Position numbers and translations under genes: made by a program
Shown: positions 1,786 to 55,514 of the stretch, one piece after another
How the letters are laid out: every line of letters starts with the position of its first letter
Numbering within the stretch: the stretch's first letter is position 1
Assembly: GCA_030583845.1 (NCBI GenBank)
Contig: CP129478.1
Location: forward strand, 66,655-130,654
Direction: 5' to 3'
Origin: Candidatus Dojkabacteria bacterium
Lineage (GTDB): Bacteria; Patescibacteriota; Dojkabacteria; SC72; JAHDCA01
DNA length: 64,000 nucleotides
Notes under the pieces: model-generated
Told to the model about the DNA's origin: nothing
What the model saw: the letters and a program-made list of their open reading frames with translations, nothing else
Database searches by the model: none

Positions 1786-3069
1786 ATGACAACCTATAAA
1801 ATCGTTGGTGGAGAGCCTATTTCAGGCACAGTCACCCCAATGCCAAATAAGAATTCTATTGTCGCACTTATCCCTGCCGCTGTCCTTGCTGACGAGCCAG
1901 TGGTGTTCTCGAATGTGCCCATGAGCTCATCTGTGAGGGTAATGCTAAGGATTTTTCGCAAGCTTGGTGGGAAAGTCTCATATCTCAAAGATGGGAAAAT
2001 TAAGTTAGATGCCTCAACTATAAACTACACGGTTGTAGATAAAGAGCTCGCGAAAAAAGAGCGAGCTTCAATCATGTTCCTCGGTCCACTTGTATCCCGA
2101 TTTGGCGAAGCCGAATTCGGACAGTCTGGTGGCTGCAAGCTTGGTAGTAGGCCTATCGACACACTTCTACAAGGGCTCACAAATCTTGGCGCAAAGATTG
2201 ATCCTGAAAACATCTTCCACATAACTGCAAACGGGCTAAAAGGAAACGACAAAATATGGCAGCTCGAGACATCGGTTACGGGTACAGAAAATCTTGTAAT
2301 TGCAGCCGTTAAAGCAGAGGGACGAACAGTTATCTATAACGCAGCCTGTGAGCCACATGTGCAGGACCTATGCAATTTCTTCAATTCAATCGGTGCAGAT
2401 ATCCGAGGAGTGGGTACAAACAGATTAGAGATTAACGGCGTTGAGAAACTGAGAGGGGGGGAGTGGAGCGTCATTCCAGACTTCGTTGACATTGGTGGCC
2501 TAATTGTTGCAGCTGCAATTACAGGTGGAGAGCTCACAATCAAGAATGCCATTCCCGATCACATGCAGCATATCCTTATGTTCTACGACAAGATCAGTCT
2601 CAAGTACAATATAGATGGAGACAGCATTCACATCCCTGCAAAGCAGAAGCTTGAGTGTAAGCCAAATGCTCAGGGGGATATGGATAAAATTACAGCGCAG
2701 CCATGGCCGACAGGATTTCCTGCAGACCTGATCCCGCAAGCATTGGTACTTGCTGCATCAGCTGGTGGCAATATCAGAATCCAGAATATGATGTACGAGA
2801 CGCAGCTAAACTTCGTGGACACGCTCAATAAGATGAGGGCCAAAATCGCTCTCACCAGCCCGAACCAAGCGATTACATTTGGTCCATCACAGTTCAAAGG
2901 AACAGTGGTATCGGCACCTGACATTTTGCAATGTGCTCATGCTGTAGCTTTAGCTGCATTTGCGGCTAAGGGTGAAACGAAAATATTGAATGCCGACATT
3001 ATCAATCGAAGGTACCCAGAATTTGTATCAACGTTCAAAAAACTTGGTGCTAAGATTGCCGCAGAGTAG
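1786..3069 (+). CDS. murA: UDP-N-acetylglucosamine 1-carboxyvinyltransferase MurA
   Basis: EPSP-synthase fold. N-terminal KIVGGEPISGTV...PNKNS motif and an active-site Cys in GGCKLGSRPID. Length 427 aa. Confidence 0.9.
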   Translation: MTTYKIVGGEPISGTVTPMPNKNSIVALIPAAVLADEPVVFSNVPMSSSVRVMLRIFRKLGGKVSYLKDGKIKLDASTINYTVVDKELAKKERASIMFLGPLVSRFGEAEFGQSGGCKLGSRPIDTLLQGLTNLGAKIDPENIFHITANGLKGNDKIWQLETSVTGTENLVIAAVKAEGRTVIYNAACEPHVQDLCNFFNSIGADIRGVGTNRLEINGVEKLRGGEWSVIPDFVDIGGLIVAAAITGGELTIKNAIPDHMQHILMFYDKISLKYNIDGDSIHIPAKQKLECKPNAQGDMDKITAQPWPTGFPADLIPQALVLAASAGGNIRIQNMMYETQLNFVDTLNKMRAKIALTSPNQAITFGPSQFKGTVVSAPDILQCAHAVALAAFAAKGETKILNADIINRRYPEFVSTFKKLGAKIAAE

Positions 3070-3280
3070 CATCAAATACTTAGCGACCCATAGTCTCGTA
3101 TTACTCTTCCGATAAATAGTTCACTAGCTTGATACTACAAGATCACACTGTCACATTTTCTTGTCGCAGGAATCATTGTTGACCGCTTGCTTAGCAGGCA
3201 CGCAATATTACACATTTACCAACTATAAGATCCCAACTATTTTGACATAGCAATATGCTAGTGCTACATTGATACCATCT

Positions 3281-3315
3281 GAAGTGGTGAATGGTGGCAC
3301 AGAGTGGTGGGTGGA
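3281..3315 (+). promoter_or_regulatory. candidate MraZ operator (GTGG direct repeats at 10-bp phasing)
   Basis: GTGG boxes at 3284, 3294 and 3304, plus one at 3311, lie immediately upstream of the mraZ start and downstream of a TTGACA (3243) promoter-like element. Phased GTGG/TGGG repeats are the established MraZ binding architecture. Confidence 0.5.
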
Positions 3316-3333
3316 TGATATACTACACCAACC

Positions 3334-3774
3334 ATGTTGATAGGTGAATACCGAAGCAAAATAGGAGATAAGAAAAGAGTCGCCATTCCAAAGAGATTCA
3401 GAGACGAGATGGGGGATGATCTGATACTTACCCGAGGCTACGAAAAAGCTCTTGTATTAGTAAATAAAGAGATGTGGGGGAAAGTAGCAGGCGAGGTAAT
3501 TGGGGGCTCTTTCATAAACAAAAACATCAGAGACAGCAGCAGGTTCCTAGTAGGAAGCGCAGTTGAGTTGGATCTCGATCAGCAAGGACGAGTTGTAATC
3601 CCGACGGCACTCTACGAGCATGCAGCTTTAAGCAAAGAAGTAGTATTCGTTGGACTAGTAAACTGGGTAGAACTATGGGATAAAGAGATGTGGAAAGAGA
3701 GATTAAATTATCTTCAAGCCCACAGCGAGATTATCGCAGATGAATTAAGCAAGATTAAATCAGATGACAAATAG
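3334..3774 (+). CDS. mraZ: transcriptional regulator MraZ
   Basis: 146 aa. Duplicated MraZ/SpoVT-AbrB-like halves. Sits at the head of the dcw cluster directly before rsmH. Confidence 0.85.
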   Translation: MLIGEYRSKIGDKKRVAIPKRFRDEMGDDLILTRGYEKALVLVNKEMWGKVAGEVIGGSFINKNIRDSSRFLVGSAVELDLDQQGRVVIPTALYEHAALSKEVVFVGLVNWVELWDKEMWKERLNYLQAHSEIIADELSKIKSDDK

Positions 3775-4654
3775 CTACCATACACCAGTCCTTCTATACG
3801 AATCTCTGGAACTCTTGAATATTAAGCCTGATGGATTCTATCTGGATGCCACGCTTGGGGAAGCGGGACATAGCAGAGCAATCCTGGAGAGATTGAGTAG
3901 TGGCGGAAAGCTGCTGAGCATCGACCAGGATGAAGAAGCGATCCGATACGTCAGGCATAACTATCAGGAGCAGTTGTTAGGGGGCAACTGGGAGATCGTG
4001 CAAAGCAACTTTGCCAAAGTTCATGAAGTTTTAATGAACTACAATAGGAAACTGGATGGTGTCCTGATGGATCTTGGAATCTCTTCTCGGCAGATTGAAA
4101 TAGAAGGTAAAGGAATCAGTTACCATAATCAATCAGATCCGTTAGACATGAGGATGGATGATCAGCTGCAAGTTACAGCTGCAGACCTCCTAAATGCACT
4201 AACTGAGCAAGAGCTAGAGAAACTCTTCCGAGTATATGGTGAGGAGAGATATGCCAAGAGAATAGCAAGAATTATAAAGGAATCTCCGACGCCCGTTCAA
4301 AGCGTTGGGGAGCTTAATACCATTATAAGTAGAGCAGTACCGGCAACTAAAAACAGCTCTAAACACCCTTCCCGCAGGGTCTTCCAGGCCCTGCGAATAG
4401 CGGTTAACGACGAATTGAACAGTCTAAAAGCCGGATTAGAAGGATCATTTACAAATCTAAATAGCAATGGACGCTTAGTAGTAATCTCATTTCACTCACT
4501 AGAGGATCGGATTGTTAAGGAGTACTTTAATCAGCTCGCAAGAGAGGGCAAAGGAACACTTATCACAAAGAAGCCGATCGTGCCTACAGACACAGAAGTC
4601 ACACAAAACCCTAGATCGCATAGCGCGAAGGTGAGAGCGATAGAGAAGCTTTAA
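3764..4654 (+). CDS. rsmH: 16S rRNA (cytosine1402-N4)-methyltransferase RsmH (MraW)
   Basis: DATLGEAGHS SAM-binding motif. Overlaps the mraZ end by 11 nt. Length 296 aa. Confidence 0.9.
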   Translation: MTNSYHTPVLLYESLELLNIKPDGFYLDATLGEAGHSRAILERLSSGGKLLSIDQDEEAIRYVRHNYQEQLLGGNWEIVQSNFAKVHEVLMNYNRKLDGVLMDLGISSRQIEIEGKGISYHNQSDPLDMRMDDQLQVTAADLLNALTEQELEKLFRVYGEERYAKRIARIIKESPTPVQSVGELNTIISRAVPATKNSSKHPSRRVFQALRIAVNDELNSLKAGLEGSFTNLNSNGRLVVISFHSLEDRIVKEYFNQLAREGKGTLITKKPIVPTDTEVTQNPRSHSAKVRAIEKL

Positions 4655-5319: not shown

Positions 5320-7095
5320 ATGGATAAGACGCCTGAGAAGATCTTTAGGCTGAACACCCGTGTTGTGTTTATATTTATCATTGTTTTTGGGTTTGCAGTC
5401 ATCCTCCAGATGGGCAGATGGCAGATTCTTGATCGTGAGAAATTTGAAGCGATGGCCAGCTCCCAATATTTGAGCACACAGAGACAGCCATCAGGCCGAG
5501 GCACCATCTTCGCAGCGGACGGAAGTATCTTAGCCACGGATAGACCTGCATGGGATGTGTATGCCTCGCTGAGCAGCATTGAAGAAGAAAGAGAGGCATT
5601 CTTTGCCGAAAAGGATAAATATGTGGAGAACGTATCGCAGGTGTTAGGCATTGATTCGAGTGAGCTAGACGAGAAGCTGACCGACGAATTCCGATATATC
5701 TCGATAGAGAAAGGTATAACCCCAGACGAGAAAAAATCATTAGAAGAGGCGCAAATATTTGAGGAAATGTCCCCTGGATTTGGGCTTTACTTTGAGAAGT
5801 CCGAAAAACGTTTCTATCCAAATGGATCGTTAGCTTCGCACGTCTTGGGCTACATGGGGAAGGATGCAAATGGTACCGATATTGGCCTCTACGGAATCGA
5901 AGGCTACTATTTCGGAGACCTGTTAGGCACCGAGGGCTACACATATGAAGAGCAGGATGCAAATGGCAATATTATCCTGACGGCTGAGTACGACCCAGTA
6001 CTACCTCGAGAAGGAAAGGATATCACCTTAACAATCATCCCTGGAATCCAGAAGAAAGTAGAGGACAAACTAAAGAAAGGTGTTGAAAACCACCAGGCAA
6101 AAAGCGGTAGCGCAATAGTGATGGATCCATCAACTGGGGCGATTATAGCAATGGCTAACTACCCAACTTACAATCCGAATGAGTATTGGAGACAGCAAGA
6201 GGCGTGGATCTTTAAAAATAAAGCCATCGCAGATGTTTACGAGCCAGGATCTATATTTAAGCCAATTACCGTAGCTATTGGCTTAGATACCAAAGCCATC
6301 GACGAGAACACTGTCTGCAATGATGAGAAAGGGTATATTACGATGTATGAAGGCACTCCAGATGAGGCGAAGATTTACACCTGGGACAGGAAGCCTGATG
6401 GCAAGATCACCCCCGCACAGTACCTACAGTTTTCAAACAATCCCTGCATTGCCACAACTGCCCTGGCTATCGGTCATGAGAAATATTTTCCCGCAGTTAA
6501 ACGGTTTGGGATAGGTGACTTTGTCGGACTAGGCCTACAGGATGAGACAAATAGCTACATCAGACCATACGAAGAATGGCTCGAGATCGACTTAGCCACC
6601 TCTTCTTTCGGCCAGGGAATCTCTGCAACCCCTATGCAGATGATCTCGGCACTTGCCTCACTTGCCAATGATGGGAAACGTATGCAGCCTCACATAGTAA
6701 AAGAGGTTGGCAATGGAGAAGAGGTTATACAGTTTACCCCTAGGGTAGTATCACAGACTGTGTCTGAAGAGAGCGCAAATAAGGTAGCACGTATGATGAC
6801 ATCGGTCGTTACAGGGGGTGATGCGAAATGGATATTTGATAAGTACTTAAGGGAGTATGACATCGCTGGGAAAACCGGAACAGCTCAGATCCCTAAGAAG
6901 GATACTGTGGGGTATTATGCAGACCGTACAAATACTACCTTTGTAGGATTTGCACCGGTCGACGATCCGAAAATGATCATGCTAATTAGACTTGAAGAGC
7001 CAAGTCTTGGTGAGCACTCGTCCGGTACAGCCGTGCCTGTATGGGTGGATACATTCCTAGCCATCGCTGACGACCTTGAGGTACCTAAGAAGTAG
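5320..7095 (+). CDS. ftsI: peptidoglycan D,D-transpeptidase (FtsI/PBP2-class penicillin-binding protein)
   Basis: N-terminal TM. SxxK (GSIFKP), SxN (FSNN) and KTG (AGKTGTA) motifs. The ATG at 5320 is preceded by GAGGT; the track start at 5263 is also possible. Confidence 0.85.
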   Translation: MDKTPEKIFRLNTRVVFIFIIVFGFAVILQMGRWQILDREKFEAMASSQYLSTQRQPSGRGTIFAADGSILATDRPAWDVYASLSSIEEEREAFFAEKDKYVENVSQVLGIDSSELDEKLTDEFRYISIEKGITPDEKKSLEEAQIFEEMSPGFGLYFEKSEKRFYPNGSLASHVLGYMGKDANGTDIGLYGIEGYYFGDLLGTEGYTYEEQDANGNIILTAEYDPVLPREGKDITLTIIPGIQKKVEDKLKKGVENHQAKSGSAIVMDPSTGAIIAMANYPTYNPNEYWRQQEAWIFKNKAIADVYEPGSIFKPITVAIGLDTKAIDENTVCNDEKGYITMYEGTPDEAKIYTWDRKPDGKITPAQYLQFSNNPCIATTALAIGHEKYFPAVKRFGIGDFVGLGLQDETNSYIRPYEEWLEIDLATSSFGQGISATPMQMISALASLANDGKRMQPHIVKEVGNGEEVIQFTPRVVSQTVSEESANKVARMMTSVVTGGDAKWIFDKYLREYDIAGKTGTAQIPKKDTVGYYADRTNTTFVGFAPVDDPKMIMLIRLEEPSLGEHSSGTAVPVWVDTFLAIADDLEVPKK

Positions 7096-7801
7096 ACTTA
7101 GCTTTGAGCAAGATATATCTGAACCTTCGATCTTGCTTTACCCATTTTTTGTAATAGTGTGTCTGTGCGAATCCCCACTCCTCCGGACGGTAAACGCCTG
7201 AAGTTACCTCAAATATTTCGCTCACTTTATTAGCCTGATCCAGCACGAAATCAAAATACTCCTCCCAATCGGTCGCGAAAATGATAAAGCCACCGTCTGC
7301 TAATTTTGTGCTAATCTGCTCAAACCAGCTTGCCACCAGCGGTCTTCGCTTATGGTGTCTTTTCTTATGCCACGGATCAGGAAAAAGGATATACACGCCG
7401 GCCAGTGAATGATCAGTAAAAAGCTTTATTGCGGCTTCATAGGCGTCAGCCTTAAACACCAGAGCGTTCTTCAGTCCAGAGACTTTCTTGTGCGACATCA
7501 AAGCAAATTTTTTAAATATCTCGAACCCTACATATAAATTCCCTGGGTTCTCTGTGGCTAGTTTCTGCAGCTGCTCACCATGACCGCTTCCGATTTCCAC
7601 ATATAGATGATCAAAATCCATATACTTCTCCCATGGAAATGGCCATGGCAGCTGCTCATAATTGAGTGGGTCAAGATCCGCAGCAGCATACTTGTAACTG
7701 CTGGCTTTGACAGACTTTTTTATCTGACGGACATTCTCACTTAGTTTACTCGCCGTCTGATACTTAATCTTTTTAACCTTGGTCTTTAATGACTTTTTCA
7801 T
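7085..7801 (-). CDS. trmB: tRNA (guanine46-N7)-methyltransferase TrmB
   Basis: EIGSGHGE SAM motif and a PDPWHKKRHHKRR motif typical of TrmB. Convergently overlaps the ftsI end by 11 nt. Confidence 0.85.
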   Translation of the reverse strand: MKKSLKTKVKKIKYQTASKLSENVRQIKKSVKASSYKYAAADLDPLNYEQLPWPFPWEKYMDFDHLYVEIGSGHGEQLQKLATENPGNLYVGFEIFKKFALMSHKKVSGLKNALVFKADAYEAAIKLFTDHSLAGVYILFPDPWHKKRHHKRRPLVASWFEQISTKLADGGFIIFATDWEEYFDFVLDQANKVSEIFEVTSGVYRPEEWGFAQTHYYKKWVKQDRRFRYILLKAKSTS

Positions 7802-43233: not shown

Positions 43234-43950
43234 TTAATGGAGCGTTTGAGTTCCTGCCATCCTGAAAGCTGACTCAAAGTGATCTCCAAATGGAAAAATC
43301 TTGACGCTGATTAGACCCATTCTCGACCTTGTCAGATCTTCAACTATTCCCTCTGGCTTTGAAAGGTTAGCCTTGGAGATAAAGTGTAGTGCCTGTTTGG
43401 TGTTAAACAGATGCATAAAGAGTCTGCGGGTCATAGCAATGTACAGCTCTTCTTCGGCCTCCTCTTCTTCTCCGATAAACTCCCATGCTATATTGTAACG
43501 AGAAAGTTTGACTGAGGCCGTCTTTAACAGTCGTCTCTGAGCCTCCTGCGCTGTCATACACTCACCTCGCGATTTCGCCTTATCTTTAGCATTAATGTAG
43601 CCATGAACAAGTGCTCCATCTACGAGTTCATAGCACTCCTCATAAAAGCAGCTCAGAGTAGCTCTAAACTGGTCAAATAGATCAAAAGGGGTACGTTCTT
43701 CAATACCTGTCTGACGCAAATTATCGTGATCAATAAAATCTCTAACAAACTTTGCCATACCAATTATACGATTAGATTCTCCTGCGTACTCCATACTTCC
43801 ATAGGATTCTTGGATAATAAGCCCCAACAGTCCCATCGATGCCGCGAGGCTCATTCCTGGCTTCTCTGTTTGCTCTTGTCTGTGTTCTAGCCAGCCCACT
43901 AGGGTGGGAGAGATTGTTTTTAGTTCAGGTTTCGTAAGCGTTTTATCCAT
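43234..43950 (-). CDS. hypothetical protein
   Basis: 238-aa soluble ORF at the left border of the R-M island with no motif recognised. Confidence 0.3.
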   Translation of the reverse strand: MDKTLTKPELKTISPTLVGWLEHRQEQTEKPGMSLAASMGLLGLIIQESYGSMEYAGESNRIIGMAKFVRDFIDHDNLRQTGIEERTPFDLFDQFRATLSCFYEECYELVDGALVHGYINAKDKAKSRGECMTAQEAQRRLLKTASVKLSRYNIAWEFIGEEEEAEEELYIAMTRRLFMHLFNTKQALHFISKANLSKPEGIVEDLTRSRMGLISVKIFPFGDHFESAFRMAGTQTLH

Positions 43951-44052
43951 GCGGGATTATACCGCTAGTAATAACATAACGCTATAGGGTTGCGACATAT
44001 TAAGAAGTAAATGAGGCAACGCTGATGTTTCCGTTTAACTGGCGTAGAAGGC

Positions 44053-44127
44053 TATACCCAGCTGGCCTCAGTCTCCAGAAAGATTATAGAGCAACTCAAG
44101 TTGAAAGATTTCACCGCTGGGTATAAT
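44053..44127 (+). promoter_or_regulatory. candidate autoregulatory operator and promoter of the HTH-methyltransferase
   Basis: 10-bp inverted repeat TATACCCAGC (44053-44062) / GCTGGGTATA (44116-44125). The downstream copy overlaps the GGGTATAAT -10 (44122-44127). A CCAGCTGG palindrome is also present at 44057-44064. Confidence 0.45.
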
Positions 44128-44149
44128 ATATCACTAAATTGAAACCGTT

Positions 44150-45364
44150 ATGTATTTATCACAGAAATTACAACAAGAGAGAGAATTTAAAGGTCTAACT
44201 CAAAGAGAGCTTGCCGACTTATCTGGGGTAAATTACTCAACAATTACCAAGCTTGAGAGCGGTGTGTATCAAAATCCTACTCTCGATACCATTATGAAAA
44301 TAAGTAGCGCCCTTGAGATAAAGATTGAAAGTCTCTTACAACCGCGGAAAGAATTTGGAATGCCTTCTAACACAATGATTGAATCCCACGCTGAAGTCAA
44401 AGGTGTAAAATTTACCTTTATTGACCTCTTCGCAGGTATTGGAGGAATTAGAATTGCCTTTGAGAGGCAAGGCGGGCGCTCTTTGTTTTCTTCTGAAATT
44501 GATAAGTATGCGGTTAAAACCTACCAAGCTAACTACGGTGAGACGCCTGCTGGCGATATTACCCAAATTGATGCCACAAATATACCTGATCACGATATTT
44601 TACTAGCAGGATTTCCATGCCAACCTTTTTCAATCGCTGGAGTTTCAAAAAGGCAGAGTTTGGGCAGGGGTCACGGTTTCTTTGATGAAACAAAGGGAAC
44701 ATTATTTTTCGACATCGCAAGAATTATTGAAGTGAAGAGGCCTAAAATCGTGTTTCTCGAAAATGTGAAGAACCTTATGTCACATGATAAAGGAAGGACT
44801 TTCGAAGTAATAATCAACACACTAAAAGAGCTTGATTACATACCATACTATAAAGTTAATGACGGACAGCATTTTGTCCCACAGCACAGGGAAAGAACAA
44901 TTATTGTAGCTTTTGATAATAAAGTATTTAAAGGCAAAGAGAATTTTGAATTTCCAGAGCTACCTAAAAAAGAAGTGAGGCTCTCAGATATTCTTGAAAA
45001 AGAGGTTGACCCTAAATATACACTTACTGATAAACTGTGGGAGTATCTTCAAAACTATGCGAAAAAACATAAAGAAAAGGGTAATGGATTTGGTTATGGG
45101 CTTGCTGATTTTAATGGAATCACTAGAACCTTAAGTGCTAGGTATTACAAAGATGGATCAGAGATTCTTATCCCTCAGGAAGGTAAAAACCCAAGAAGGC
45201 TTACCCCAAGAGAATGTGCAAGACTTCAAGGTTTCCCTGAGGATTTCATAATTCCTGTTTCCGATACACAAGCATATAAGCAGTTCGGAAATGCTGTAGT
45301 TGTTCCTTTAATGGAGTACTTAGCTAATTCAGTTGTTAAATCATTAGGATATGTTAGAAAATAA
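44150..45364 (+). CDS. DNA (cytosine-5)-methyltransferase with an N-terminal XRE-type HTH regulatory domain (M.EcoRII/M.SsoII-like)
   Basis: N-terminal HTH ([23 protein letters not shown]). C5-MTase motifs [50 protein letters not shown] and [10 protein letters not shown]. Confidence 0.9.
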
Positions 45365-46529
45365 TTTTGCAGGTCAGGCAATTGAGGCTGTTAAAAGAGG
45401 TTCTGTAGCTTTCTCGAAATTTATAACTTCAAACGATGCTGGAGTAACTGGAGGTCATCAAAGTGGATTCCATCTACATAAGAACTCATACCCTCTTTTT
45501 TTTGAGACTCAAGGAGTCAAAGGTGAAAATAGTGAAAAATTTGCAAAGATAAAATGGCAGGGAGATTTTGAAACAGACAGCAGGTTTATCTACTATGGGG
45601 TCGGTACAAGAGATGAATACAGACTTACAAGGTTCGGCAAAGGATTTCCGTTTTTAACAGAGGAAAGCGTTGGAAACCTTCTTATTCTTACTAAACAGAC
45701 AGATGAGTACTACGAGGCGTTTGTACTTTCAAGTGATGATGAGATAGAAACCTTCTTCAGTGCATTCGGCATAAGTCCACAGGAAACAAATAAAATCATT
45801 CCTAAAACAAATACTGTAAGTGTTGAAGATCAGCTTATGAAGATGTTTGAGGCTTACATAGGTACTATCAGCGTTGATTTCCCTCTTACAACCGAGATTG
45901 CAGATAATGCTAGGAAAATAATTATGCAGGTTTCTGGAATATCTACAATTGATGTCAAATCTAATCCAGATAAGGAGCTTTTGAGATGGCTTGATACAGA
46001 GTATAAGTTATTTAAAACTATTGAGAATAATAGATATTCAAACATCATAGGGCAACCTTTTAAGGATGTAGATTCTTTCATACAAACAGCGAACAGCATT
46101 TTAAATAGAAGAAAAAGTAGAGCTGGAAAGTCACTTGAGCATCACCTTTCAAATATGTTTACAACTTTTGATTTGAAATTCAGTGAGCAGACTGTAACAG
46201 AAGAGCACAAAAAGCCTGATTTCATCTTCCCAAGCCCGGAAGCATATCACAATTTTTTATTTGATCAGAATAAGCTTGTTTTTCTTGCAGCGAAAACAAC
46301 ATGCAAAGACAGATGGAGACAGATCTTGAATGAAGCTGACAGAATCAAAGTAAAACATTTATTTACATTACAGCAGGGAATATCTTCCAATCAGATGAAA
46401 GAAATGACGCGCTACAATGTTAAACTTGTTGTTCCAAAAGAATATATAAACACTTATCCTAAGGAGTACAGAGAAGGAATTTATTCGCTTGGTCAGTTTG
46501 TAAGATACGTCGATGCAACTCAAAAATAG
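45351..46529 (+). CDS. EcoRII-family type IIE restriction endonuclease (likely CCWGG-type specificity)
   Basis: Overlaps the MTase end by 14 nt. The N-terminal effector domain ([18 protein letters not shown]) resembles the EcoRII-N B3-like domain. C-terminal catalytic-domain signatures [42 protein letters not shown] and HLFTLQQG match my recollection of EcoRII; this comparison is from memory and was not aligned. Confidence 0.7.
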
Positions 46530-46558
46530 TGACAGACAACTAACAAAGAGCCTAGAAT

Positions 46559-46645
46559 ATGTCTAGAGACACCTCGGTAAGACAGATTCTTGAAAATAAA
46601 GAATGGAAAGTGATCTATATATGGGAATGTAAAATGAGAACCGGA
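46559..46645 (+). pseudogene. vsr: remnant of very-short-patch repair endonuclease gene vsr (C-terminal about 27 codons only)
   Basis: Translation RDTSVRQILENKEWKVIYIWECKMRTG matches the Vsr C-terminus (...RDRRVNEALEAQGWRVLIVWECALRG). In-frame stops lie immediately upstream. Only 29 nt separate the REase stop from this fragment, so about 120 N-terminal codons are missing. Confidence 0.6.
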
Positions 46646-46693
46646 CATAATATTTTCAAAATTTTACGAATACAAGATCTTGCTGATAGCAAG

Positions 46694-47914
46694 CTAATCA
46701 GGTGGCTCTTGGATATGTGCTTGAAAATAGATTATCTCGTTGACCAAGTTTTTCTGCGTATACTTCATTTCTTGGTATTTGTAGTAATCATTGAAGTACC
46801 CACTTAGGCTTGCGAGTTGCCTGCTGAATCTTCCAAGAAATGCTGTTACGCCTTCTAAAGTGAAATCAACAGAGTCAATGCCATCACCTAGGTCATCTAA
46901 CATCTTTCTGCAAACAAAGTATCGACCAAAATCCGTACTATTACCACGCAGCTTCGGTTTTGTTATTAAAAGTGGTTCATAGATGGGCTTGTAGATGTCG
47001 AGTTCCATTTCTTCGCTCATGTTCTGCGTAGCTTGGTGCAACCTTATTGCCCTTGTAATCGTATCATTTGATCTTGGCTCCAATACTAAAAGCTGGCTAT
47101 AGGCATATTTTATTACTGAAGAGACGACGGTCCCACTATACTTCTTCAAAGGCATATCTTTATCTTTTTTCCAATCTAGAAGTGTTGATAACACTACGCC
47201 CCAAAATATATAACGACCATATTCACACTGTAGGCAACTGTTGGGTGTTTCTGATAAAACTTCTTTCGAGATTACAAAGAGATAGAAAGAAACAACTTCA
47301 GACATGAGTGCTCCTTGTGAGATATCATGCAGTAACTCTCTATCACATTCTGCTACATTCCTTATACAGTTCGTTGCAATGCTTTGTGCGATACTCTTGC
47401 TGTTGTCTTCAAGTTTTCGTGGTCTTTCATAATCATTAACCCAAGTAAGATCGAGCCACTTTGATAAACAGATAAAACCGTTAAGAAGATGATTTATACC
47501 TTTAGTATTACCATGTACAACCACCTCATATAAAGACTCCGTGATTTTATCCATTCTACCTCGCCTAGAGTTAATCCAAATTTCCAACGGGGACAATCTG
47601 ACGCCAAACGGCACTAAGGCATTATACACAAGCAAGTTAGTTGCGATATCAAAGGTGTATGGGCCACCTGCATTAATTTCGTGAGAACGTATTTCACATA
47701 GGTAGCTATGAGGCATCCTTTTCAATACTCTACCAATAACAGAGACATACAATGAAAAATCTTTGAGGGTTAATAGTTGCGGCGTGTCAGCATTACCAAA
47801 AAAGCTATCTATTAATCGATTCGCCAGAAAATAATCCCCTTCCAACTCAGTTTCGCCCACAAGTGCAAGGGTAATTATTCGCCAATTCTCACATTCAGCG
47901 TCTAAAACTGCCAA
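46694..47914 (-). CDS. hypothetical 406-aa protein adjacent to the R-M module (possible defence-associated, HEPN/Abi-like?)
   Basis: AT-rich like the R-M genes. Soluble protein with a single Rx4H match (RAIRLH). No confident family assignment. Confidence 0.4.
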   Translation of the reverse strand: MAVLDAECENWRIITLALVGETELEGDYFLANRLIDSFFGNADTPQLLTLKDFSLYVSVIGRVLKRMPHSYLCEIRSHEINAGGPYTFDIATNLLVYNALVPFGVRLSPLEIWINSRRGRMDKITESLYEVVVHGNTKGINHLLNGFICLSKWLDLTWVNDYERPRKLEDNSKSIAQSIATNCIRNVAECDRELLHDISQGALMSEVVSFYLFVISKEVLSETPNSCLQCEYGRYIFWGVVLSTLLDWKKDKDMPLKKYSGTVVSSVIKYAYSQLLVLEPRSNDTITRAIRLHQATQNMSEEMELDIYKPIYEPLLITKPKLRGNSTDFGRYFVCRKMLDDLGDGIDSVDFTLEGVTAFLGRFSRQLASLSGYFNDYYKYQEMKYTQKNLVNEIIYFQAHIQEPPD

Positions 47915-48057
47915 GGATACTTCTTAGCCATCAATATTCTTAAAAACCTTCTAGGATTTAACAATTTCCTTCTTGTTTGCGGATACAACAAAAAACCCTC
48001 AATGTATGAACTGTGCATACTTGTAAATCTGCAAAGTTAAATCAGTACATTACATCA

Positions 48058-49290
48058 TTAAGCCAAGTGCTCGTCAACCCTCCCCCTCCTAAATCTCCTA
48101 CCAATCCACCCAAACCACCCCCTACGCACCATCAAGAACACACTAAACACCAATCCCACCGCACTCAGCCCCAAGAGTACAGTCCATAGCCTTACATTTA
48201 CCTCGCTACCATTCACCACCTTCAAGTCATCAGTCTCTAGCCCCTTATTCGTTACCTCATCCTCATCTACCTCATCACCCTCATCAGTTATCACTCCACC
48301 CAAGTCTGCAGGGTCTATCCCTTCAGGGATCTCTTCCTCTTCGACAGTAGGCTCATCCCGGGTCGCAGCTGGAGCGGCAGGAGTATCAGCCTGACCAAGC
48401 ATGGCAGCTGTTACAGCGACAGAGGCGTCACCTGTGCTTTTCACCTCGGCATGGCCGAAAGCATCTTCTGTGACTACCATCAGGGCATATGTGCCAACGG
48501 TAAGGCTGGCATCACTTACGTCGAGCGTCTTGCTACATGTACCGCTGCGGGTTGCATCTGCTGTCCCTGCACTAATCCACTGGTTGTTGGCGAAATATCT
48601 AAATGAGCAAACCCGGTCTTCCAGATAGTTGGCATTGCTCGGCTCAGTTACTGTACCTGTCATCTGGATCTTCCAATCGGGGTTGTCGGCACCGTTGGCA
48701 TTGGTGATCTGGGCGGTCAGAGTGCTGCGGGGTGCCTCACCATCTACGGTGATTGTGTTGAGTGTCTGGCCATTGATGAGCGGGGAGCTTGTTGGGTCAT
48801 ATACCCAGAACCTGACACTGTATGTAGCAACAGGGTCGAGTAGTGTGCGGTTAATATTGTTGGTACAGGAGTAGCTCAGCATGGTTGGGTCATCTTCATC
48901 TGGGACACCCGCGGAAAGTGTGCCGTTGTACTGTCCTGTCTCACCGCTTCCCCAGTTAAATGACACCTTGCATGTGGCAATGGTTGCATCACTCTCAAAT
49001 GTGATAACCGAGGTGAAGACATCGTTTACATACATTGTGGAGCCGTCAACCTTGTTTGGCGTGTATGCAGAGGTCTTAACTGTCGTGGCGGCATATGCGG
49101 GGCTGCTGGAGACGAAAGAGAGTATGGCTACGATAACTATGGCGAGGAAGGGGATGAGTAGGTGTCTTTTGCGTCCGACCACTTGTCGGCGATACGGTAG
49201 AAGGAAAGGCTTTTGCTTTGAGCCAACTGGTCGGACTGGATTCTCAATGTCTCGACGTTGTGGCTCTTTATCTGTATGAGTTGTTTTCAT
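48058..49290 (-). CDS. cell-surface protein with N-terminal signal anchor, beta-rich Ig-like region, acidic linker and C-terminal TM anchor
   Basis: N-terminal TM (LIPFLAIVIVAILSFVSS). C-terminal acidic stretch (EEEEIPEGIDPADLGG...DEVDEDE) followed by a TM helix and an RRGRVDEHLA basic tail. Confidence 0.45.
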   Translation of the reverse strand: MKTTHTDKEPQRRDIENPVRPVGSKQKPFLLPYRRQVVGRKRHLLIPFLAIVIVAILSFVSSSPAYAATTVKTSAYTPNKVDGSTMYVNDVFTSVITFESDATIATCKVSFNWGSGETGQYNGTLSAGVPDEDDPTMLSYSCTNNINRTLLDPVATYSVRFWVYDPTSSPLINGQTLNTITVDGEAPRSTLTAQITNANGADNPDWKIQMTGTVTEPSNANYLEDRVCSFRYFANNQWISAGTADATRSGTCSKTLDVSDASLTVGTYALMVVTEDAFGHAEVKSTGDASVAVTAAMLGQADTPAAPAATRDEPTVEEEEIPEGIDPADLGGVITDEGDEVDEDEVTNKGLETDDLKVVNGSEVNVRLWTVLLGLSAVGLVFSVFLMVRRGWFGWIGRRFRRGRVDEHLA

Positions 49291-52266: not shown

Positions 52267-52887
52267 TTACTCCGCTTCAACAGGCCAGTTCAATTTCATA
52301 AACCAGCTATTAAATATCTCTTTCGAGACAATTAGCCTACTGTTGTACTCCCCGAAGTCGAAGATCCTGCCAGTAAACCGACTTGGCTTGAGGTTCCCAG
52401 CGAGTATTTCTATACCCTCGTCACTTGCGACGCTTTCATACAATTTACCGAAGCTAGCCACAGGATCTACATCGATAGATGACAGTAACACTGGTGCTCT
52501 GAATTCATAATTCCGATACAGCAGGAAGTAGCCTTGATCAGTAACAACCAGCATCGCCATATTCCTATTTGTGTCCATTACTCCGTAGCATGCATTCTGA
52601 GCTGTACCGAACTTCCCATCCTGTTCAAGCCCTGTAAACCCAGTAAAGATTATAACCCTTGATTTTTCAATCATCTCAAGAGATTCATTTCCATTTTCAT
52701 ACTCCATAATCATCTCCTCCATCAAGGGAACAACTGCCGAGTAGTATGCTGTTTCTCCATCATTATGCTTGACCCATGGTGCACGATTGAATTCTTCCAT
52801 GTACAGCTCGAGGGGAAATCGCTCACTCTTCTCTCCGTACTCAACTGCCAGGTTTTCTAATCTCTCACTACTTGGTCCACCCATCAC
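52267..52887 (-). CDS. hypothetical protein translationally coupled to mutS, paralogue family member E
   Basis: 206 aa. Its start overlaps the mutS stop (ATGA). Segments SERFPLELY...APW and DQGYFLLYRNYEF are shared with the ORF at 49789. Confidence 0.4.
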   Translation of the reverse strand: MMGGPSSERLENLAVEYGEKSERFPLELYMEEFNRAPWVKHNDGETAYYSAVVPLMEEMIMEYENGNESLEMIEKSRVIIFTGFTGLEQDGKFGTAQNACYGVMDTNRNMAMLVVTDQGYFLLYRNYEFRAPVLLSSIDVDPVASFGKLYESVASDEGIEILAGNLKPSRFTGRIFDFGEYNSRLIVSKEIFNSWFMKLNWPVEAE

Positions 52888-55514
52888 TCAAACCTCCTCT
52901 TCAACTCCACCAGCTTATTCAGCGCCTCCACCGGCGTCATCCCATCTAGATCCAGCCCTTTCAACTCATTAATAAGCTCCGACTCCTGCGCAGAGAAGAA
53001 TGATAATTGATCAATGCTAGCTGCTTTGCTCGATTTCCCCTTAGTCGCTGCTGCTATCTGCTCATCATCAGACTCGCCCTTGCCATTTGATAGAGTAGAG
53101 AGGATCTCATTCGCTCGCGTTACCACCTCCTCAGGCAATCCAGCCAGCTGCGCTACATAGATGCCGTAGCTCCGATCAGTACCACCCTCGACGATCTTCC
53201 GCATGAAAGTTACTTCGCCTTTCTCCTCATCCTCGCTCACCATCACATTGTAGTTGCGGACAAATTCAGGGTGCTCGGCTGCCAGCTTCAGCAGCTCGTG
53301 ATAATGGGTAGCAAACAGTGTGCGAGCCTTGACTCGACTCACAAGATACTCGGAGAGAGCCCATGCAATGCTTACACCATCGTAGGTGCTTGTACCTCGA
53401 CCCACCTCATCCAGTATCACCAGGCTGTTTTCGGTCGCATTATTCAATATATTTGCCGCTTCCTCCATCTCCACCATAAATGTGCTCCGTCCCTGGCTCA
53501 GATTGTCTGAAGCACCTACTCGTGAGAACACACGATCGACCAGCGAGATCTCAGCATCATTTGCTGGCACGAATGAGCCGATCTGCGCCATCAAGACGAT
53601 AAGTGCGATCTGACGGATATAGGTTGATTTACCCGACATATTGGGGCCGGTGATGATGGCCATGCGATTGCCCATGATTGTCACATCGACATCGTTTGAT
53701 ACAAACTCATCATCTGAGATCTTCTCGACTACAGGGTGGCGGCCACCTGCTATCTTTAAAACTCCGTCGCGCACACCAAAATCATGCATGATAGGCTTGA
53801 TGTAAAGATTTGACCGCGCAATATTTGCAAACCCGGCCAGGACATCAAGCTTGCCAGTCTCATGAGATAGCTGCTTGATCGCTGTGAGGTAGGGGAGCAG
53901 CTCTTCCCGCAGCTCTTGGAAGATATTGTACTCGAGCTTGAAAAGCCTCTCCTCAGCGCCAAGGATCACCTCTTCTTTCTTCTTCAGCTCATCGGTAATG
54001 AAGCGCTCGCAATTTACCAAAGTCTGCTTGCGGATATAGTAGCCGGGGACTTTATCAATATGCGCATTAGTGACTTCTATGTAGTAGCCAAAAACCTTGT
54101 TGAATCCGATCTTGAGCGATGGGATGCCGGTCTTCGCTTTCTCGACCTCAACCATCTCTTGGACCCACTCGTTTTTCTGGCCTGAGTTGCTGCTGCCAGC
54201 CAGTGATCTTAATTCATCTACCTCTGGGCTGTAACCGGCTTTGACAATTCCACCCTCACTTATCGTAGTAGGTGGTGAATCCGAGATTGTAGAGTCAAGG
54301 CGGGTGATCAGGCTATTTATTGGGAGTTTTTCGTCGGAGAAGAGCTGGGCGAATTTAAATTTCTCAAGCAGCTCGCTATGCTCTGCTAATCTATCAGATA
54401 TTTGCAGCATATTTTGCAATGAAAGCTGCAACCCTTTCAAGTCGCGCGCTGAGGCTCTGTTTAGACCGACTTTGCCGACAATTCGCTCTGTGTCGCTTAC
54501 TTCAGATAGAAGCTTGCGGATTTCATTAAGTAGCTCAAAGTCATTGTGAAAATACTCGACAACTTCATGCCTTTCATTAATTTCATGAAGATTAAGCAGC
54601 GGATTAATTACCCAAGAGTAGAGCATACGCCTGCCCATGACAGTACGAGTGTCATCGAGCACCTCAAGCAGTGTGTCGTGAGATTGCCCAGTGTAGGAGT
54701 TCTGCACCAGGTCGAGGTTGCGGATTGTCGCTCGATCAAGAACCATCGTGCCCTGAGTCGAGAAGTATTGCGGTCTGCTGATATGCTCTGGGTTCATTTT
54801 CTGCGTATCCAAGATATAGCTGATAAGCATGGAAGCAGCTCTGGCCGCTAACTTATAGTCCGCTATAAAAAGCGAATCCAAGCTTTTCGCTTTATAGAAT
54901 TCTTTGAGCGTCTTCTCAGCGGCGGCTGGCTTGCTCTCTGCAGCGCTGATAAGCTGCACAGGGATTTCATTAAATTTTAATGAAGTCTCGGAGTCCGGAA
55001 GCAAAATCTCTACAGGGTCGTGCGCCGCAATTAATGAATTTAATGAATCCCGACTCAGCGGAATCTCAGTAATCTTAAATTCACCAGTTGAGAGATCTGC
55101 AAATGCAACGCCGATCTTTTCCTTATCCTGCACGACAGCCATCACATATGGATTTTTGCGCGAATCGGCCAGATCGCCATCAAGCGTACCTGGCGTGACT
55201 ACTCGAGTGACACCTCTTTTAACTACTCCCTTGGCCAGCTTAGGATCCTCAAGCTGATCAACAACAACAGCGCTGTGGCCTGATTTGATGATCTTGGGCA
55301 GATATTGATCAAGCGCATGGTGTGGGAAACCGGCAAGTGGGGTAGGGTCGGTAGCTTTGTCGCGGGTAGTTAATGTGATATTTAATACTTTAGAGGCCAG
55401 CTTGGCATCATCGCCAAATGTCTCATAGAAATCACCCATCCGAAACAGCACAATCTTGTCAGGATATTGCCTCTTGACGCCTAAATATTGTTCCATCATG
55501 GGGGTCTTTTTCAT
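52884..55514 (-). CDS. mutS: DNA mismatch repair protein MutS
   Basis: N-terminal mismatch-binding domain (MEQYLGVKRQYPDKIVLFRMGDFYETFGDDA). Walker A GPNMSGKST and an ABC signature. Length 876 aa. Confidence 0.9.
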   Translation of the reverse strand: MKKTPMMEQYLGVKRQYPDKIVLFRMGDFYETFGDDAKLASKVLNITLTTRDKATDPTPLAGFPHHALDQYLPKIIKSGHSAVVVDQLEDPKLAKGVVKRGVTRVVTPGTLDGDLADSRKNPYVMAVVQDKEKIGVAFADLSTGEFKITEIPLSRDSLNSLIAAHDPVEILLPDSETSLKFNEIPVQLISAAESKPAAAEKTLKEFYKAKSLDSLFIADYKLAARAASMLISYILDTQKMNPEHISRPQYFSTQGTMVLDRATIRNLDLVQNSYTGQSHDTLLEVLDDTRTVMGRRMLYSWVINPLLNLHEINERHEVVEYFHNDFELLNEIRKLLSEVSDTERIVGKVGLNRASARDLKGLQLSLQNMLQISDRLAEHSELLEKFKFAQLFSDEKLPINSLITRLDSTISDSPPTTISEGGIVKAGYSPEVDELRSLAGSSNSGQKNEWVQEMVEVEKAKTGIPSLKIGFNKVFGYYIEVTNAHIDKVPGYYIRKQTLVNCERFITDELKKKEEVILGAEERLFKLEYNIFQELREELLPYLTAIKQLSHETGKLDVLAGFANIARSNLYIKPIMHDFGVRDGVLKIAGGRHPVVEKISDDEFVSNDVDVTIMGNRMAIITGPNMSGKSTYIRQIALIVLMAQIGSFVPANDAEISLVDRVFSRVGASDNLSQGRSTFMVEMEEAANILNNATENSLVILDEVGRGTSTYDGVSIAWALSEYLVSRVKARTLFATHYHELLKLAAEHPEFVRNYNVMVSEDEEKGEVTFMRKIVEGGTDRSYGIYVAQLAGLPEEVVTRANEILSTLSNGKGESDDEQIAAATKGKSSKAASIDQLSFFSAQESELINELKGLDLDGMTPVEALNKLVELKRRFE
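54845..54861. repeat. solo copy of the 17-mer CCGCTAACTTATAGTCC inside the mutS coding sequence
   Basis: Identical to the left arm at 29092-29108. On the minus strand it encodes DYKLAA within MutS. No inverted partner is found nearby. Confidence 0.6.

Follow-up and report, generated by a model that had tools for sequence, protein, structure and literature searches.

Background

In Escherichia coli K-12, dcm and vsr occur as a solitary pair, with no restriction endonuclease beside them. Loss of vsr leaves E. coli strains deficient in VSP repair, with frequent C-to-T mutation at 5-methylcytosines, and over-production of Vsr is itself mutagenic via competition for MutL (PMC2715241). Some bacteria are documented to encode C5-methylases but no vsr-like gene, and Vsr genes that are unlinked to their methylase are on record as well (PMC12907096).

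We analysed a stretch of 64,000 nucleotides from the genome of a Candidatus Dojkabacteria bacterium (assembly GCA_030583845.1, contig CP129478.1, positions 66,655 to 130,654 of the forward strand), referred to below as the window, with all coordinates counted from its first letter unless a related locus is named. It carries an EcoRII-type pair of methyltransferase and endonuclease genes, behind which lies a fragment that an initial annotation, made from the sequence alone, had taken for the C-terminus of Vsr. We regard positions 46529 to about 46680 as very probably a vsr pseudogene, the third gene of an EcoRII-type cassette of methyltransferase, endonuclease and vsr (M-R-V), disabled by an internal deletion.

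An EcoRII-type restriction-modification pair

The first gene of the cassette (44150-45364, + strand; WKZ31251.1) encodes a C5 cytosine DNA methyltransferase of 404 aa with an N-terminal HTH. Its translation matches positions 1-323 of the 324 in the Pfam profile DNA_methylase (PF00145, E 3.4e-95) as well as HTH_3 (E 2.2e-13), scores 332.8 bits against the NCBIfam dcm model TIGR00675 (cut-off 100.65), and contains the motifs FAGIGG, PCQ, ENV, QxRxR and GNAV of a cognate C5-methyltransferase; against NF007772 it reaches 393 bits, short of the 710 at which that model has its cut-off. The second gene (45351-46529, + strand; WKZ31252.1; stop codon TAG at 46527-46529) encodes an EcoRII-like type II restriction endonuclease of 392 aa in which both domains, EcoRII-N (PF09217, E 2.6e-19) and EcoRII-C (PF09019, E 2.2e-64), are recognised. 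It aligns over its full length with the EcoRII structure 1NA6 (E 1.5e-60), and the segments KKPDF, K-x-x-x-x-D-R-W and ILNEAD (E-A-D) are conserved. Judged from their translations, both genes look intact and both enzymes are predicted to be active, with CCWGG presumably the site that is methylated and recognised.

Homology of the downstream fragment to Vsr

Exactly 29 nt separate the endonuclease stop codon from the ATG at 46559, as initially annotated, and this ATG opens a mechanically listed ORF of 82 aa (46559-46807, + strand) whose translation begins with MSRDTSVRQILENKEWKVIYIWECKMRTG. General searches with the ORF returned little. There was no match in Pfam or PADLOC, a phmmer search of the PDB found no Vsr at E<=10 and only chance matches (e.g. 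MecI/BlaI-like, E~1), and a word-index protein search of 5.8 billion clusters and proteins gave no candidate homologue. The NCBIfam model 'vsr' (TIGR00632) aligned residues 1-24 to profile positions 95-118 of 119, at E 0.033 and with 14.5 bits against a cut-off of 97.85. Since the remnant spans only about 30 residues, for which such generic tools are too blunt, we built Vsr profiles from related cassettes.

The targeted searches agree on a single segment. With E. coli Vsr as query (a sequence identical to PDB 1CW0 chain A), tblastn gave one match in the window, at 46556-46639, corresponding to Vsr residues 93-120. When a profile made from the Vsr sequences of related cassettes (20 proteins) was searched against all 2,424 six-frame stop-to-stop segments of the window, the segment 46556-46804 ranked first (E 1.4e-6; runner-up E 0.8). 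A second profile, built from the best 120 database relatives of the Vsr of the closest related cassette (L004, described below; about 7,900 further matches exist), gave the same segment at E 3.8e-7, the next best segments across both profiles lying at E 0.4-0.8. On these profiles, 142-143 positions in length, the fragment occupies positions 92/94-125. In BLASTP comparisons with the best 120 Vsr proteins it always falls at positions ~79/92-120, with 40-56% identity, and in tblastn against the L004 Vsr it corresponds to codons 92-118 (48% identity). The residues themselves, NMSRD...EWKVIYIWEC, fit the conserved pattern N-[IV]-x-R-D ... G-W-x-[VI]-x-x-[VI]-W-E-C. Going by these alignments, the similarity of the fragment to Vsr is real, and the proposal that it is a Vsr C-terminus has held up both in the tblastn and in the profile searches. 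No other Vsr-like segment occurs among the 2,424 six-frame segments of the window.

Anatomy of the remnant

The Vsr-like stretch (46556-46651, + strand; N-M-S-R-D ... W-E-C, equivalent to E. coli Vsr residues ~93-125) does not coincide with the extent of 46559-46645 first given to it. It begins one codon 5' of the ATG, with the N at 46556, and ends at about 46651 according to the profile alignment. It possibly ends at about 46681, as one relative (P0006) aligns 42 residues up to its own C-terminus, although identity past WEC is weak. We therefore describe 46652-46693 as a possible degenerate Vsr tail. It holds no recognisable stop codon: none is left near 46651-46681, and the frame continues to 46807. 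At the end of the possible tail, still inside the 82-aa ORF, lies the hairpin CTTGCTGATAGCAAG (46679-46693), a terminator-like site on the - strand, apparently terminating the convergent 406-aa gene (46694-47914, - strand; WKZ31253.1). Codons 46-82 of the ORF (46694-46804) and its stop are antisense to the 3' end of this gene. Only the first ~31-41 codons of the ORF are derived from vsr, and the initial view that most of it is not Vsr protein is borne out, its last 38 codons (46694-46807) being antisense sequence. Folding of the RNA of 46520-46760 gave no structure signal (z-score -0.03).

In the motif N-[IV]-x-R-D, the I/V position is occupied in the window by the ATG (M) of the 82-aa ORF, so that the apparent start codon is an accident of substitution. 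The reading frame upstream of it is closed by two in-frame stops, TAA at 46538-46540 and TAG at 46553-46555, as had been noted. Between the former start at 46529 and the ATG at 46559 these stops leave nothing of the uninterrupted reading frame of about 120-170 codons of a vsr gene.

A second piece of vsr lies at the endonuclease stop codon. The former start codon, now GTG, overlaps this stop and is followed by ACAGACAA (M/V-T-D-), so that the 5' remnant (46529-46539, + strand) reads GTG-ACA-GAC-AA. From the stop onwards, TAGTGACAGACAA in the window matches TAATGACAGACAA at the homologous position of L004 in 12 of 13 nt (46527-46539). Beyond its first 11 nt the 5' piece aligns to L004 only poorly and noisily. 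The intervening positions 46540-46555 form a junction zone that holds the breakpoint of the internal deletion and the in-frame stops, the first of which spans the border to the 5' remnant. The N-terminus of vsr is consequently not simply absent, as the initial annotation had it, since the first ~11-28 nt of the gene persist. The loss was also overstated at about 120 codons: relatives are 134-150 aa long and the fragment starts from position ~92, leaving roughly 80-90 codons missing.

What is missing is the functional centre of the enzyme. Numbered on the E. coli sequence identical to 1CW0, residues ~9-92 of Vsr hold Asp51, Thr63/His64, Cys66, Phe67, Trp68, His69, His71, Cys73 and Trp86, which we take to make up the catalytic and zinc/intercalation core. 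The equivalent of Asp51 (PD) and the GCFWH(x)H(x)C / zinc motif were lost with the middle of the gene, and only the equivalents of Asp97 (R-D) and Cys117 (W-E-C) are retained in the 3' remnant. No counterpart of the core was found in any frame of 46500-46810, nor did any other segment of the window match the core positions of the Vsr profile significantly. With the catalytic core deleted, T:G nicking activity is expected to be absent, and as far as its coding capacity can be read, the remnant cannot encode an active enzyme and is without repair function. The fragment thus has the C-terminal N-x-x-R-D ... G-W-x-V-x-x-x-W-E-C segment and the linkage to a C5 cytosine methyltransferase, 29 nt past the endonuclease of the pair, that are seen in the Vsr family. 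Its match to the Vsr profile is confined to C-terminal positions 92/94-125 and does not cover the whole domain. Given the missing core and the broken reading frame, it fails as a functional member of the family and is better described as Vsr-derived DNA than as a Vsr.

The remnant is not an assembly artefact, as positions 44001-48100 are 100% identical in three independent assemblies (runs SRR24881069, DRR779146 and DRR859400). No gene is called between the endonuclease and the 406-aa gene in these assemblies (loci L001-L003), the NCBI accessions of these two proteins are consecutive (WKZ31252.1 and WKZ31253.1), and the 82-aa sequence is absent from a collection of 15 billion proteins.

The closest cassette and a survey of relatives

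A genome scan identified the closest relative of the cassette in another Ca. Dojkabacteria MAG (L004; JAFGFJ010000006.1). Its methyltransferase is 71% identical to that of the window over the full length and its endonuclease 66% identical, with 392 aa in both. Order and orientation are likewise the same: an HTH-methyltransferase, an EcoRII-like endonuclease, and a vsr that begins at the endonuclease stop with the same TGACAGACAA. In contrast to the window, the vsr of L004 is intact, with 141 codons and an ATG that overlaps the endonuclease stop (TAATG), and a gene for a large serine recombinase comes next, whereas the window copy is short by ~240-250 nt and abuts the convergent 406-aa gene. 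The recombinase gene of L004 (515 aa, 5579-7126 of that locus) and the 3' end of the intact vsr share 26 nt, which suggests that a recombinase-borne element carries the M-R-V unit from place to place. The cassette of the window has no recombinase next to it.

Among 40 loci that encode relatives of the window endonuclease, about 30 include a vsr, which is full-length unless cut by a contig end or by N-masking. It lies directly after the endonuclease, upstream of the methyltransferase or 1.6 kb downstream, or is fused to the methyltransferase. In an Ignavibacteria MAG (L010; JAAXKQ010000018.1), for example, an N-terminal Vsr and a C5-methyltransferase share one ORF of 541 aa (2380-4005 of that locus) upstream of an EcoRII-like endonuclease. 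Three loci with full 4-kb flanks (L024, L029 and L031) have neither a vsr nor a detectable Vsr remnant nearby, so the linkage of vsr to this cassette family is frequent and not universal. The window is the sole locus of the 40 with a partial vsr remnant.

Other relatives of the endonuclease are more distant. The metagenome scan yielded full-length relatives of at most 58% identity and a 158-residue fragment (L043) of 61%, and the best match in the viral scan was 49%. Exact-protein look-ups of the endonuclease, a 238-aa gene and the 406-aa gene returned the same strain only, and the genome, metagenome and viral scans found no ancestral or sister strain with an intact vsr, nor an 'empty site', at this locus.

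Probable internal deletion and alternative explanations

We aligned the window to the L004 vsr in two pieces, anchored at the former start codon, ending at the WEC codon and with one long gap allowed free of cost. The break falls in the interval 46546-46563, and 237-249 nt of the L004 gene (~ codons 9-92) have no counterpart in the window; the alignment scores higher than 198 of 200 shuffles of the middle segment. Since the comparator is only 66-71% identical in the adjoining genes, these breakpoints are uncertain by about +/-10 nt. The initial suggestion that related genomes could locate the break is thus answered to within this interval, the exact position being beyond reach at such divergence. 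A different register, in which NMSR belongs to the N-terminal R-S-x-N-M-S-R-I motif (R-S-W-N-M-S-R-I) and the gene was fused in frame by microhomology between the two similar motifs, scored only slightly lower (13 against 17). On the protein profiles NMSRD falls firmly within the C-terminal N-[IV]-x-R-D, and this register is therefore kept only as an alternative breakpoint.

The order of events that we infer is as follows. An ancestral vsr would have started at the endonuclease stop, in an overlapping and translationally coupled TA[A/G]TG as in L004. An internal deletion of ~240-250 nt would have removed roughly codons 9-92 together with the catalytic core, after which small indels and two in-frame stops would have built up in the 5' piece that was kept. 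A change of I/V to M in N-[IV]-x-R-D would have supplied the ATG, and with it a spurious ORF of 82 codons running into the antisense of the neighbouring gene.

The evidence for a deletion within the gene bears directly on a simpler account, a 5' truncation in which the event that joined the cassette to its neighbour took the front ~90 codons of vsr and left a 29-nt spacer of unrelated origin. In favour of this account, the remnant is located at the margin of a variable slot, with synteny to two related loci (L050 and L051, see below) ending at about 46721, and the spacer past its first 11 nt aligns poorly. However, an intact endonuclease gene lies upstream, so that the junction would fall inside the cassette and not at its edge; the match of 12 of 13 nt to the vsr start of L004, at exactly the homologous position, indicates that the 5' end was retained; and the two-piece alignment outdoes nearly all shuffles. 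We accordingly consider a 5' truncation unlikely. The start context of vsr was kept after the endonuclease stop, which means that the middle of the gene was lost and not its whole front.

The two other explanations concern the nature of the ORF itself. That it is a functional new small protein, in which the C-terminal segment of Vsr has been joined to a hydrophobic tail (FLRILHFLVFVVIIEV), could be argued from its intact ATG frame of 82 codons, a weak Shine-Dalgarno-like AAGAG 8 nt upstream of 46559, a promoter-like GTGACA-18-TAGAAT at 46529-46558 and a sequence that is identical across assemblies. Yet this identity reflects one clonal strain and not conservation, no homologue exists in the 5.8 billion clusters, the ORF is absent as a called protein, and its second half reads through the terminator-like hairpin into the antisense of a conserved gene. 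Promoter-like sites, moreover, are no commoner here than in shuffles, and this one would initiate downstream of the ATG. A new small protein thus seems very improbable to us. The promoter-like site is the best sigma-70-like match of the region (10/12, + strand); it lies within the vsr 5' remnant, points into the 406-aa gene and is probably fortuitous. Chance resemblance of the peptide to the Vsr C-terminus might be entertained on the marginal TIGR00632 value (E 0.033) and the negative Pfam and PDB sequence searches alone, but the in-window values of 1.4e-6 and 3.8e-7 against 0.4-0.8 for the next segment, the consistent alignment to one C-terminal stretch in all 120 Vsr proteins, and the location of the fragment exactly where the closest cassette has its vsr make coincidence hardly credible.

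A variable slot beside a conserved gene pair

The cassette lies in a tract of low GC content (34-39% over about 44000-48000, against a window mean of 45%). We considered whether this tract is a single island that includes the 406-aa gene, a possibility that is ruled out by synteny with L050 and L051. A search of 1.84 billion representatives yielded only two remote homologues of the 406-aa protein (27-28% identity). In each case the gene immediately upstream is a homologue (53-54% identity) of the 410-aa gene that partners the 406-aa gene in the window (48058-49290, - strand); these pairs lie at 112-2613 of L050 and 1-2588 of L051. The 406-aa gene is thus a conserved neighbour of the 410-aa gene, and an island boundary drawn on GC content has to be rejected. 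The product of the 410-aa gene is a membrane/surface protein. The 406-aa protein has no match in Pfam, NCBIfam or PADLOC, and its AlphaFold single-sequence model is all-helical with a pLDDT of 39.9; the gene looks like a fast-evolving one that borders a variable defence slot.

In tblastx comparisons, synteny between the window and L050 and L051 ends at about 46721, at the 3' end of the 406-aa gene. Past this point each genome differs: the window has the vsr remnant and the EcoRII-type pair, L050 a convergent Mrr-type endonuclease, and L051 genes for DUF2779, an S8 peptidase, an AAA ATPase and a ResIII helicase. As different restriction or defence genes follow in each genome, the cassette occupies a variable slot, with the vsr remnant at its edge. 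The initial interpretation of the fragment as a rearrangement junction at an island edge therefore stands as regards the edge of a variable region, while the lesion itself is an internal deletion of ~240-250 nt with added stops: vsr was inactivated by a loss from within the gene, which does not coincide with the boundary of the slot. A search with ARAGORN detected neither tRNA nor tmRNA genes anywhere in the 64 kb.

Potential mutational consequences

Unless a second vsr exists elsewhere in the genome, the deamination of 5-methylcytosine at methylated sites would be left to general mismatch repair; a MutS is encoded at 52884-55514. The 120 best database relatives of the L004 Vsr, beyond which about 7,900 more matches exist, include none from a contig of 1,036,382 bp, the length of the source contig, a result of little weight for the presence or absence of such a second copy. 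An accumulation of C-to-T transitions following the loss of vsr is plausible, and the direction of the CCWGG deficit fits it. Under a third-order Markov model, 69 CCWGG sites were observed in the window against 92.8 expected (O/E 0.74, z -2.5), which places CCWGG 7th when the 512 pentamer classes are ranked by depletion. For CTWGG/CCWAG, into which deamination would turn it, 211 sites were counted against 194.5 expected, an excess within noise. Comparable depletion affects GGWCC (O/E 0.60), GGCC (0.74) and CCSGG (0.76). Because other palindromes are as depleted, and because restriction avoidance predicts the same deficit, the depletion of CCWGG is not decisive. GGWCC (30 observed, 49.8 expected) is the third most under-represented pentamer class and more depleted than CCWGG, and its depletion may stem from another restriction specificity acting on the genome. 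We also compared CCWGG with CTWGG/CCWAG inside the methyltransferase and endonuclease genes of 29 distinct cassettes, some with vsr and some lacking it; each has 0-3 sites, too few to be informative.

A bolder version of this reading holds that this 1.04-Mb CPR genome keeps an active EcoRII-type pair and has lost its only Vsr, that its CCWGG sites are hot spots of unrepaired C-to-T change, and that the 26% deficit together with the slight surplus of CTWGG/CCWAG is their footprint; we regard it as speculative and rather unlikely. If such hot spots existed, the stop TAG at 46553-46555, which lies in CCTAG, could be a deaminated CCTGG site within vsr itself. Around the cassette, the 4.2 kb of 43900-48100 contain no CCWGG site and 22 CTWGG/CCWAG sites, the CCTAG at the in-frame stop being one of them; a rough zero-order expectation would be about 3 CCWGG, making the absence of marginal significance.

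Comparison with known systems

The locus presents ordinary gene decay that is of use for annotation and of minor evolutionary interest, and current understanding is not overturned by it. For annotators, the locus is best entered as a vsr pseudogene inside an M-R-V cassette, and no protein should be called from the 82-aa ORF. In evolutionary terms it offers a small and clean example of differential decay within a restriction-modification cassette, the repair accessory being lost and the selfish M-R pair left intact. Should the genome prove to encode no further Vsr, it would also provide a natural case in which to measure the mutational load of 5-methylcytosine in a minimal CPR genome.

Like the EcoRII system, the window encodes an endonuclease with both EcoRII-N and EcoRII-C domains and a Dcm-like methyltransferase, with the fragment directly behind them, as initially annotated. 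Unlike EcoRII and the dcm-vsr pair of E. coli, its genes are collinear in the order M, R, V, and an HTH is fused to the methyltransferase. With Vsr itself (E. coli, PDB 1VSR/1CW0; TIGR00632; PF03852) the fragment shares residues 93-120, the R-D and W-E-C elements and an adjoining Dcm-type methyltransferase, the typical neighbour of vsr genes, whereas the window copy lacks the whole stretch between residues ~9 and 92 and has in-frame stops ahead of its ATG. Finally, the locus differs from those bacteria that have a C5-methyltransferase and no vsr-like gene in that a recognisable remnant is still in place, so that the loss of vsr appears here to have been caught in the act.
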